This document shows, piece after piece, positions 19,888 through 45,185 of a DNA stretch of 64,000 bases. Position 1 is the stretch's first letter; each line of letters starts with the position of its first letter. The position numbers and the translations under genes were made by a program. The DNA comes from Eledone cirrhosa (lineage: Eukaryota): the NCBI GenBank assembly GCA_964016885.1, contig OZ024759.1:19034001-19098000 (forward strand). The letters run 5' to 3'. Under the pieces are notes generated by a model that was not told where the DNA came from, searched no databases, and worked only from the letters and a program-made list of their open reading frames with translations.

Positions 19888-19986
19888 ATATTTATTAAAA
19901 TAACAGATTAAAGTTTCAGAAGATCCCGTTAAGGGGGAAAGCAGCGATTCTTTGCTTAAACTTTAATCTGTTATTTTAATAAATAT
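19888..19986 (+). ncRNA. Hammerhead-like fold, CAGAAGA core variant, with a long stem I
   Basis: aaagttt-CAGAAGA-tccc/gggg-GAAA-gca..tgc-TT-aaacttt; second copy at 33776-33826. Confidence 0.6.
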
Positions 19987-20335
19987 TTGCTCTACGGTTC
20001 TTATATATTTGATATATATTTATCCTTATCGAGCCCTCTTTGGATTTTAGTCTTCAAATTTATTATTATTACTATATAATATATATATATATAATATATA
20101 TATATAATATATATATAATATATATATAATATATATATATATATATTTTATTATTTTCTTTTCTCGTGAATCGTGGTTGTCTCCCTTTCCTGCTTAGTGA
20201 CGCTATGATACTTCCTCAGTCAAAAGACTGCGTGAATTTCAAATTTGGCGGTCATTCGATGCGTGAAGGAGCAGCTTAGCAGACACGATTTTTAACTGCG
20301 GTAAGAATTTTTTCTTATATCAAAGTTTAATGGGC

Positions 20336-28667: not shown

Positions 28668-28832
28668 TATATATATAACGAAGGGAATGTGGTAAGGAAC
28701 CAGGTGGACCATAACGAACCAAAGTACTCAATACTACCTTCCCTCCACAAATTGCCATGATAGAATTATTATGTCTCAACAACAAACTTTTGACCAATCC
28801 TTGTGACAATCACTTTTACCATATATGGAATT

Positions 28833-28928
28833 ACCCCCTGAGAAGCTCGGCTATTCAAATACCAGGATAAAAATTTCCATTTAGTCCAGAATTAGCCGTC
28901 GAAACGGCTTGAGCTCAGCCGTCGGGGT
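28833..28928 (+). ncRNA. Type I hammerhead of PLE-like family A
   Basis: ACCCC-CTGAGAA-cggcta.ttc/gaa.tagccg-GAAA-CGGCT(tgagctc)AGCCG-TC-GGGGT; all three stems pair, core has a C3.A8 mismatch. Confidence 0.72.
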
Positions 28929-28938
28929 CCTACTCGTT

Positions 28939-30527
<1,589 letters not shown>

Positions 30528-31154
30528 GGGTGTGTATGATTGTGTATAGAAGATTATATTAATAAAAGGAATTCCAACTTTGTCTCATTTACTCGTTTTA
30601 TTTACAATCCTTTAAAATTTATAATGGTATTAGAATGAAATAGTATGGTAGAATATTAAATGTTAAGTGTTAATTGAACAAGTACTTTCATGCTTTCGCA
30701 TTCTTCAGGTTCATATTGTGTGGTGACAGTCAAGTTTGCAATTTTCAACTGTATACATACATACACACGCTCTCTCTCTCTCTCTCAAGAAGAATTTGGT
30801 TGTGTTCCAACCTGGATAGGTATGAGTGTTCCGCCAGTTTTAACTGCCTGAGACGCTGCCCCTTCTACTTTATCACGAGTTAAGAACAATATTGTGGGGT
30901 CCAAAGAAGGGACTCAGTTTATCAAATAACAGTCACCTGTTTAAATCATCATCTCACGCTCTCTGTAACCAACATAGCGGCATACAGGTACGGGCCTTTA
31001 CGTTCTGAGTTCAAATCCCATCGAAGTCCTCTTTGCTATTCATCCTTACGATAAAATAAAATACCAGTCAAATATTGAGGGTCATATAATCGACGTCCCC
31101 TCCACACGAACTGCAGGCCTTGTGCCTAGATCATAAATCATTATTTCAACGTTT

Positions 31155-33775: not shown

Positions 33776-33826
33776 AGTTTCAGAAGATCCCGTTCAGGGT
33801 GAAAGCAGCGATTCTTTGCTTAAACT
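33776..33826 (+). ncRNA. Hammerhead-like fold, CAGAAGA variant
   Basis: agttt-CAGAAGA-ccc/ggg-GAAA-gca..tgc-TT-aaact. Confidence 0.55.
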
Positions 33827-33920
33827 TCTTATATATTTGATATATATTTATCCTCATCGAGCCCTCTTTGGATTTAGTCTTCAAATGTATTATTATTACT
33901 ATATATATATATATATATAC

Positions 33921-37399: not shown

Positions 37400-37459
37400 T
37401 ATTTTATCTGATGAAAGCATACTTTAAATTAGTATCCTAGAAATATATATAATGAAATA
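37400..37459 (+). ncRNA. Minimal hammerhead ribozyme
   Basis: tattttat-CTGATGA-..atact/agtat..-GAAA-TATATA-TA-atgaaata; 8-bp stem I with one G-U. Confidence 0.72.
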
Positions 37460-38436: not shown

Positions 38437-38621
38437 GGATTGGCAGTATCGGTAGAGGGTCGGACGCCATGCTTTCCAGCATTGAGTTACGGCCCTTGCC
38501 ATTCTGAATTCAAATCCCGTCGAGGTTAACTTTGCCTTTCATCCTTACGGGGTCGATAAAATAAAGTACCAGTCATGCACTGGGTAATTGCTGGCCTTGT
38601 GCCAAAAGTAGAAACAATTAT
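38437..38621 (+). mobile_element. SINE, full length
   Basis: Family sequence. Confidence 0.9.
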
Positions 38622-38634
38622 ATATATAAAATAT

Positions 38635-38851
38635 ATAGGAACGAGTAGGACCCCGACGGCTGAGCTCAAGCCGTTTCGACGGCTAATTCTGGACTAAATG
38701 ACATTTTTTTTTTAGTCGAGAATTAGCCGTCGAAACGGCTTGAGCTCAGCCGTCGGGGTCCTACTCGTTCCTATTACCCACTCTACTACCCTAAGTATTG
38801 AGTACTTTGGTGCGTCATGGTCCATCTGGTTCCTTACCACATTTCCTTCGT

Positions 38852-38852
<1 letters not shown>
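38635..38852 (+). mobile_element. PLE-like family A fragment folded back inside HHR stem II
   Basis: Near-perfect palindrome 38635-38774, then the tail ending ttccttcgtt-(AT)n. Confidence 0.8.
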
Positions 38853-38898
<46 letters not shown>

Positions 38899-41014: not shown

Positions 41015-41396
41015 AGAGAGCTCAGCCGTCGTAGTCTTGACTCTTCTCCTATATATATATATATATACGCTATGTTGTCCTGGCCCCCGATTAGATGCCA
41101 GTTTTGAAAAGGTTACTCCACTACACAATGGTAGTCATGATTTGACCCCGAAACCTTCAGTCGCACATACATGTCAAGTGTATGAAATATTCATTATATA
41201 CTATATATGTGTGTGTACTTGCAATTCAACGAGGCATATTGACATACACTGTCTCATGCTGAATCACCCTGATAATTACGTTATGGGTGCACGAGACTAT
41301 GGAACACCCGTCCATCTAGACGTTAAGTTTTTGAGTAAGCTCCAAAGAACGTTGTTCAAATAACTAGAACACCCGGCGTTGCAACCGACGGAGATC

Positions 41397-41627: not shown

Positions 41628-41660
41628 TTGCGAGAATGAAGAGAATATACAGGCATGAAA

Positions 41661-42047
41661 AGAATATACTATATGTAGTAGTAATGGCATTCAGTTAGAA
41701 CAATAACAACAATATCAACAATGCTACCAATAAATTATTTGAAATAATCACAACATCAATCTAGGTGGGAAGTATAGTATATCTATCATTTTAGCTTGTA
41801 AAACTAGCTGACATGAGGCAGATGTATAAAATTGACATGTAAAAACTGCCGTAGGGTGTATTATATACATCTGTATTTTTATACATCTGCCTCATGTCAG
41901 CTAGTTTTACAAGCTAAAATCATAGATATACAATACTTCCCACCTAGACTGATGTTGTGATTATTTCAAATAATTTATTGCTAGCATTGTTGATATTGTT
42001 GTTATTGTTCTAACGGAATGCCATTACTACTACATATAGTATATTCT
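41661..42047. repeat. Palindrome with ~170-bp arms
   Basis: agaatatactatatgtag...gcagatgtataaaa / ttttatacatctgcc...ctacatatagtatattct. Confidence 0.92.
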
Positions 42048-42070
42048 ATTATTTGTTACCCCGTAACTAG

Positions 42071-42260: not shown

Positions 42261-42581
42261 TGTTACCGCGTATATATATATATATATATATATATATAAC
42301 GAAGGAAATGTGGTAAGGAACCAGGTGAACAATAACGCACCAAAGTACTCAATACTTAGGGTAGTAGAGTGGGTAATAGGAACTACTCGTAGTAGAGTGG
42401 GTAATAGGAACTACTCGTAGTAGAGTGGGTAATAGGAACTACTCGTTCCTATTATATATATATATATATATATTGAGGGCGACCGACTAAAGTAGAAGAT
42501 GCTAGATGGTCGGTCGTCCTCTTGTCTATGATTTTCAGCCCCATGGATTTTATCTGTTACATTCATTTATTATATTTCGAA

Positions 42582-45153: not shown

Positions 45154-45185
45154 ATGTTTATATATATATAAACATACATACATAC

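Follow-up and report, generated by a model that had tools for sequence, protein, structure and literature searches.

A palindromic insertion of very likely Penelope-like origin that inverts within the stem II loop of a hammerhead-like motif in Eledone cirrhosa

The insertion at 38635 and its relatives

The window analysed here is a stretch of 64,000 nucleotides from Eledone cirrhosa, AT-rich and microsatellite-rich animal DNA, and all positions are counted from its first letter. An inverted repeat occupies 38635–38774; its outermost 56 bases are perfectly complementary and complementarity over the 140 nt is 92.9%. In none of 20 block-shuffled windows did an inverted pair of 16-mers (at least five G/C, within 200 nt) occur. 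The palindrome belongs to an insertion with these features:

38619–38635, no strand: TA-rich target, left side, the AT-rich end of a frequent interspersed repeat (read from the sequence)
38636–38713, minus strand: inverted arm of 78 nt, running from site 2 (28943 equivalent) into loop II, up to the A-run (28869 equivalent)
38696–38713, no strand: inversion junction, with a short AAAT/ATTT mini-hairpin of loop II and a T10 run; axis at 38700–38702
38711–38774, plus strand: forward arm, the 3′ half of a hammerhead-like motif
38775–38851, plus strand: one-sided tail of 77 nt that stops at site 1, the fixed 3′ end of the family
38852–38898, no strand: (TA)n target, right side

The interspersed repeat on the left, about 100 nt long and found window-wide in at least 14 matches (e.g. 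38479–38600), is presumably an octopus SINE.

The inverted arm passes through the stem I 3′ arm, stem III, GAAA, the 3′ strand of stem II and loop II; beyond the apparent axis the loop letters agree with common read variants of the family (T28875G, C28877T), and the A-run that comes next is lengthened. In the forward arm we found GAAA at 38732–38735, stem III with its palindromic loop, GUC at 38752–38754 and the stem I 3′ arm at 38755–38759. An earlier note, made from the sequence alone, had described the palindrome as a duplication in both directions, and indeed both strands carry GAAA, stem III, GUC and the 3′ arm of stem I. The 5′ half of the core is absent, so the insert cannot form a ribozyme alone. 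The centre at 38696–38713 consists of a 3-nt turn, the T10 run and one mismatch, and is asymmetric, with the T10 run at 38704–38713 and a single C/G mismatch at 38718. The axis is equivalent to about 28877 in the copy at 28833 and thus lies inside the 32-nt loop of stem II, as the note had proposed; the reference used for that placement, 28833–28928, is however not a free intact element. What had been taken for an intact copy is part of a long inverted arm, joined at 28735/28736 to an inverted tail. The insert at 38635 is most likely a 216-nt, 5′-truncated, dead insertion with no evident function.

BLAST within the window found the family, here called family A, in five full copies and one partial copy. 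Besides the insert at 38635 they are:

11447–11655, minus strand: second palindromic copy (the 11444 copy), arms ending at the 28883/28884 equivalent
28675–28943, minus strand: copy with a 208-nt inverted arm and a 61-nt tail piece
42296–42451, minus strand: inverted arm of 13 nt, with two more re-priming repeats; joins 3′ of the hammerhead motif
56875–56978, minus strand: inverted arm short and degenerate; also joins 3′ of the hammerhead motif
41018–41056, plus strand: diverged partial copy ending at site 2 beside (TA)n

The five full copies share a plan. In each, (TA)n is followed by an inverted arm that starts at a fixed site, by the junction and by a forward part reaching the tail end, after which comes (TA)n again; TA runs adjoin both ends in every copy. 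The tail end, site 1, is common to the five, and so is site 2, in one of them degenerate. Site 2 corresponds to 28943; it lies 20 nt 3′ of the predicted cleavage site (past the GUC triplet) and 77 nt upstream of site 1.

The junctions vary. When the copies were aligned, as the earlier note had suggested, two of the five (38635 and 11444) proved to invert in stem-loop II, and the others join at 28735, 42439 and 56961. The two loop II junctions are themselves different, lying at the equivalents of 28869–28880 (38635) and 28883/28884 (11444), about 6 nt apart. The 11444 copy has an arm of about 60 nt with an extra re-copied piece of about 15 nt at its junction, and its inverted arm carries five private mismatches, none of them common to 38635. 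In the copy at 28675 there is no duplication, and 23 nt are absent between its two parts. Two turns in loop II out of five have a P of about 0.13 under a uniform model, which is not significant alone. No junction in the window maps to the cleavage-site position, 28923.

A T10 run at an axis could be a homopolymer error, and the earlier note had itself named an assembly artefact as a possible source of such copies. The palindrome at 38635 ends exactly at the family-fixed end with the flanks excluded, it recurs with different centres, and in independent runs site 2 adjoins (TA)n (82 contigs in run X1 have such a loose end) as well as the tail. A hairpin chimera of sequencing or assembly is thus hardly credible here.

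The copy at 11447 is nested in a TA run that ends a family C fragment (11345–11659), and the one at 56875 adjoins an arm of a palindromic MITE-like family whose TA-run centre varies in length (56527–56676, 60023–60069, 47337–47771). A separate palindrome at 41650–42050 has arms of about 170–190 bp and a spacer of about 45 nt; it shows neither TA flanks nor a hammerhead pattern, and has no second copy in the window.

The hammerhead-like motif in three families

A relaxed scan of the window gave a type I hammerhead topology at 28833–28928 (plus strand), which is the sole complete family A motif in the window and lies within the 208-nt inverted arm. It has a stem I of 5 bp, a stem III of 6 bp that includes A15.1-U16.1 and bears a palindromic loop, and a stem II with G10.1-C11.1 in which 9 of 11 positions pair. 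The fold of 28845–28900 has a z of −2.5. Free folding of 28815–28945 did not recover the hammerhead fold, and Rfam hammerhead families gave no match either in a gathering scan of the window or in an e-value scan of 28700–29000. Pattern scans found nothing in viral or prokaryote collections; one metagenome match, a 20-mer in a GC-rich coding context, was set aside as chance.

In the core of this copy C3 stands unpaired with A8, and by its sequence the copy is probably impaired as a ribozyme. The variant C28838T, which makes up 37–72% of read depth depending on the run, puts U3 across from A8, a covariant core already described for the hammerheads of Penelope-like elements (PLEs; PMC4209133). 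Among 40 listed of 222 variant rows the commonest family changes in stem II are C28846A, T28892A and C28856T, each of which converts a mismatch into a pair; the same 40 also include two that weaken the stem, A28891T, which breaks a pair, and C28897T, which gives G-U. Some 90 nt separate the end of the motif from the 3′ end of the element. A structured tail was considered and is unsupported (z about 0).

An open frame of 46 codons crosses motif and tail (28825–28943; 38716–38853, plus strand); it is in phase with an ATG at 28825 and contains a single TAG, at 28882, a position where C occurs in some read joints. Judged by its position, the frame is compatible with an ORF start overlapping the pLTR; protein searches with it returned no genuine homologue, only three spurious repeat proteins.

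The same plan was seen in two further families:

46809–47050, plus strand: family B insertion (46807), consisting of TA, a perfect inverted arm of 68–70 bp, a 3-nt loop II spacer, an 89-nt tail and TA
19888–20072, plus strand: family C insertion of the same plan, its 29-bp inverted arm joining at stem I, not stem II

The earlier note had equated the geometry at 38635 with that at 46807. Both do turn in loop II, 16 nt before GAAA in family B and 18–24 nt before it in family A, but the geometry is not obligatory, being found in two of the five family A copies. Stem II of family B pairs poorly and its first pair is A-A. In family C the junction at 19888 exchanges the bulged natural 5-bp stem I arm for a perfect 29-bp copy. 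Taking the three families together, four of the seven junctions examined fall on a hammerhead helix or loop, and three of these are in loop II.

Relatives of both families occur in the window. A complete family B motif lies in a relative at 37408–37451 (plus strand), with a CTGATGA core, a TA-palindrome stem III, an 8-pair stem I for a predicted cleavage after 37451 and a weak stem II base. Family C has relatives at 33776–33895 and 11372–11430, and the core of both motif copies is CAGAAGA, which places A at position 4. A minimal hammerhead-like motif with a CTGAAGA core and a palindromic GTAC after GAAA was seen at 30708–30680 (minus strand), with a (TA)n run about 150 nt downstream of it; it is single-copy in the window.

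Junctions of family A in sequencing reads

Reads of four runs (X1, X10, X11 and X4), two RAD runs among them, were compared with 28673–28945; runs with small shares were left aside, and no RNA run was listed as carrying the sequence. Family A is very abundant, with about 22,000 reads in each RAD run and 13,278 contigs in X1. Depth over the 3′ half of the motif was higher than over the 5′ core by 17-fold in X1, 21-fold in X10 and 28-fold in X11, and by only 2.2-fold in X4, which comes from another species (13 contigs). In X1 the depth over the 3′ half was 1.8 times that over the tail, as expected if many inserts carry the 3′ half twice. RAD molecules end at AATT sites (28830, 28872 and 28890), and this biases the two RAD runs. 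Moreover, upstream of 28893 at least one subfamily has a different sequence (1343 loose ends in X10), and divergence rather than truncation accounts for part of the depth drop. This subfamily has a different and apparently shorter stem-loop II, and one of the listed junctions also ends in its loop.

Of 70 joints the 15 with the best support are considered here, and of 52 between-letter rows the 12 best. Three of six skip joints contain undetermined letters, and five rows of the '5c' class carry no orientation. In this set, 13 of 14 distinct non-colinear tail-to-arm junctions begin the arm at 28882–28889 or an equivalent position; two of the 13 may be a single event, and the fourteenth, of uncertain orientation, lies at 28925. 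The tail-side partners of the 28882–28889 junctions vary over about 60 nt in the listed rows. Among these listed rows there was no palindromic junction in loop II. A P of 1.6e-9 for the clustering under a uniform model was set aside, since the rows were selected by support and are non-independent. As they stand, the reads are suggestive of arm ends truly clustering on the 3′ side of loop II.

Microhomology of at least 3 nt (3–4 nt) was present at 4 of 10 junctions tested, against a background of 4.7%. Complementarity between loop II and the tail is insufficient to account for the hotspot: for microhomology with the tail, 28882–28889 ranks only 20th of 183 windows, and the stop therefore seems intrinsic to that place. 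The cleavage site was also considered as the turn-around point and rejected; beyond the absence of window junctions at 28923, the reads offer one ambiguous row at 28925.

The same picture would arise if a small number of non-autonomous masters, truncated or palindromic and beginning in loop II, had been amplified in trans in the manner of SINEs, with junction differences arising later by slippage or central deletion of the palindromes. Palindrome centres are prone to rearrange, and the depth drop of 17–28-fold in one organism against 2.2-fold in another suggests a lineage-specific expansion of short forms. Against such inherited geometry, the two loop II junctions of the window differ in length and content and the private mismatches of 11444 are absent from 38635, three of the five copies are not palindromic in the motif, helix-located junctions occur in three unrelated families, and the tail-side partners vary over 60 nt. 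Descent of all such copies from one ancestral inversion is the other refuting outcome foreseen in the earlier note; descent of many copies from a few masters is still conceivable, though we consider it unlikely.

Probable Penelope-like origin and a proposed mechanism for the inversion

PLE insertions are described with an inverted 5′-truncated copy, a one-sided tail of 30–40 bp and a (TA)n bias (PMC8557442), and palindromes at their inverted junctions have been attributed to self-priming (PMC3846280). Family A resembles EN+ PLE insertions in its head-to-head inverted truncated copy (all five copies), its one-sided tail (77 nt at 38635) and its junction palindrome, and it also has a hammerhead near the 3′ end; its (TA)n target is that of the Neptune and Naiad PLEs. 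It differs from the EN+ insertions in an insert of only about 105–270 nt, a 77-nt tail where 30–40 bp are published, which counts against the PLE mechanism, and the absence of any ORF seen. By inspection there was no RT/EN ORF among window ORFs of at least 90 aa, and stumps are not expected to carry one; nor does the window contain a long copy that could show partial-tandem direct pLTRs on either side of a body. Two near-identical 91-codon frames at 7772–8047 and 45172–45447 (minus strand) resemble what we take to be the C-terminal end of an RTE-type LINE ORF. PLEs are reported to be abundant and partly recent in Octopus vulgaris (PMC13282606, PMC8967140).

The motif is close to the type I hammerheads of metazoan PLEs (PMC4209133) in its 5-bp stem I, G10.1-C11.1, long bulged stem II, palindromic loop III, a U3-A8 core in part of the copies and close opposite-strand motifs. 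In contrast to these, stem III has 5–6 bp rather than being minimal, loop II has 32 nt, about half of the family A copies have C3 with A8, and most hold the 3′ half only.

A hammerhead-bearing retrozyme, a SINE or a MITE-like element that favours (TA)n would also be consistent with the lack of a coding region or protein relative in the window and of an Rfam hammerhead match. The family has neither tandem monomers nor terminal inverted repeats enclosing a whole unit, and its one-sided tail and inverted truncated copy fit the PLE descriptions (PMC8557442, PMC3846280). Non-LTR retrozymes form head-to-tail tandem monomers, each of which carries a complete hammerhead, whereas the family A matches in the window are dispersed single inserts; retrozymes of animals are in turn reported to derive from PLEs (bioRxiv 2026.07.22.740005). 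A non-PLE origin is accordingly very unlikely, and the insert at 38635 is very probably a PLE-type stump.

In vitro, the Poseidon protein of Anolis carolinensis cleaves the two target strands and extends both; RT starts internally at two sites, which bound the tail, and ribozyme cleavage is unnecessary (PMC11167929). On this pattern we propose that the source element is a (TA)n-targeting Penelope-like retrotransposon and that the insert is its truncated terminal repeat (pLTR). The RT/endonuclease would cut both strands of the (TA)n target, and each target end would prime a cDNA, one at site 1 and the other at site 2. Synthesis of either cDNA would tend to break off in loop II, once the 3′ strand of stem II is copied; the stop might come from the RNA hairpin refolding and ejecting the cDNA end, from a bound protein, or from an RNA 5′ end in loop II. 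Such same-sense cDNAs could be joined only through inverted microhomology, which the RNA hairpins would supply. At 38635, RT slippage on the A-run of the loop may have produced the T10 run, and base pairing between the T-run and AAA in the copied other (3′) strand of the loop would place the axis at the apex of stem II. A short site 1 cDNA would give non-palindromic copies such as 28675 by the same process. The role of the ribozyme here would be structural, as a stop and annealing site, and not cleavage, given that no window junction maps to 28923. For the mechanism as a whole (two-site priming, a stop in loop II and joining by inverted microhomology) we estimate a probability of roughly 0.55.

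Like Poseidon, the proposed process has two RT start sites bounding the tail, priming of both strands and an AT-rich target, and the open frame of family A agrees with an ORF start that overlaps the motif; the site spacing is longer in family A, and inverted junctions are unanalysed in the available text of that study (PMC11167929). The accessible parts of the EN+ PLE reports (PMC8557442, PMC3846280) likewise leave the junction position relative to the ribozyme undiscussed.

The arms of the two window palindromes end 1–11 nt apart, which speaks against the two-site model and is explained equally well by a single cDNA. Such a cDNA would start at site 1, reach loop II, snap back on its own hairpin and copy itself as far as site 2, after which the endonuclease or TA microhomology would join it to the other target end. 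The near-zero spacers at 38701, 11576 and 46885, where both arms end almost together, fit this fold-back, and self-priming has been proposed for PLE junction palindromes (PMC3846280). The cDNA strand of 28866–28892 does fold at the same apex, marginally (−0.4 kcal/mol, z 0.12). Fold-back cannot yield 28675, or read junctions whose inverted arm includes sequence missing from the forward part, and the fixed site 2 would need a separate cause, which two-site priming supplies directly (PMC11167929). We regard fold-back as improbable, though worth keeping in view.

Two-site priming also has a counterpart outside PLEs, and the copy at 28675 has exactly its non-overlapping form. In L1 twin priming, two cDNAs on two target ends are joined head to head by microhomology. 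Family A differs in that its second priming site is fixed, not random, and in that its arms often overlap, giving palindromes. Twin priming is mentioned in bioRxiv 2024.12.14.628481.

Palindromic PLE insertions are already known; the junction hotspot in loop II is possibly new and a modest addition. The role of hammerheads in PLEs and the origin of inverted insertions are stated as open (PMC8557442, PMC11167929). Among the titles and abstract openings found, in a coverage that leaves out subscription papers such as the main 2005–2006 Penelope reviews, none tied PLE inversion junctions to hammerhead helices, and the available part of PMC6431247 added nothing on junctions.

A very abundant family whose two ends are sharply fixed and which has a loop II hotspot provides thousands of natural junctions with which two-site priming could be separated from fold-back, and the same family A junctions could show whether RNA structure positions inversions. 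More tentatively, and with clear doubt, hammerhead helices, above all stem-loop II, may be a programmed stop or turn-around signal for PLE reverse transcription. If so, the fold of the RNA and not its cleavage would set the sites of inverted junctions, and short palindromic inserts would be what these families chiefly produce. The PLE ribozyme would then have a non-catalytic role in integration, and maps of genomic junctions would read out a retrotransposition intermediate.
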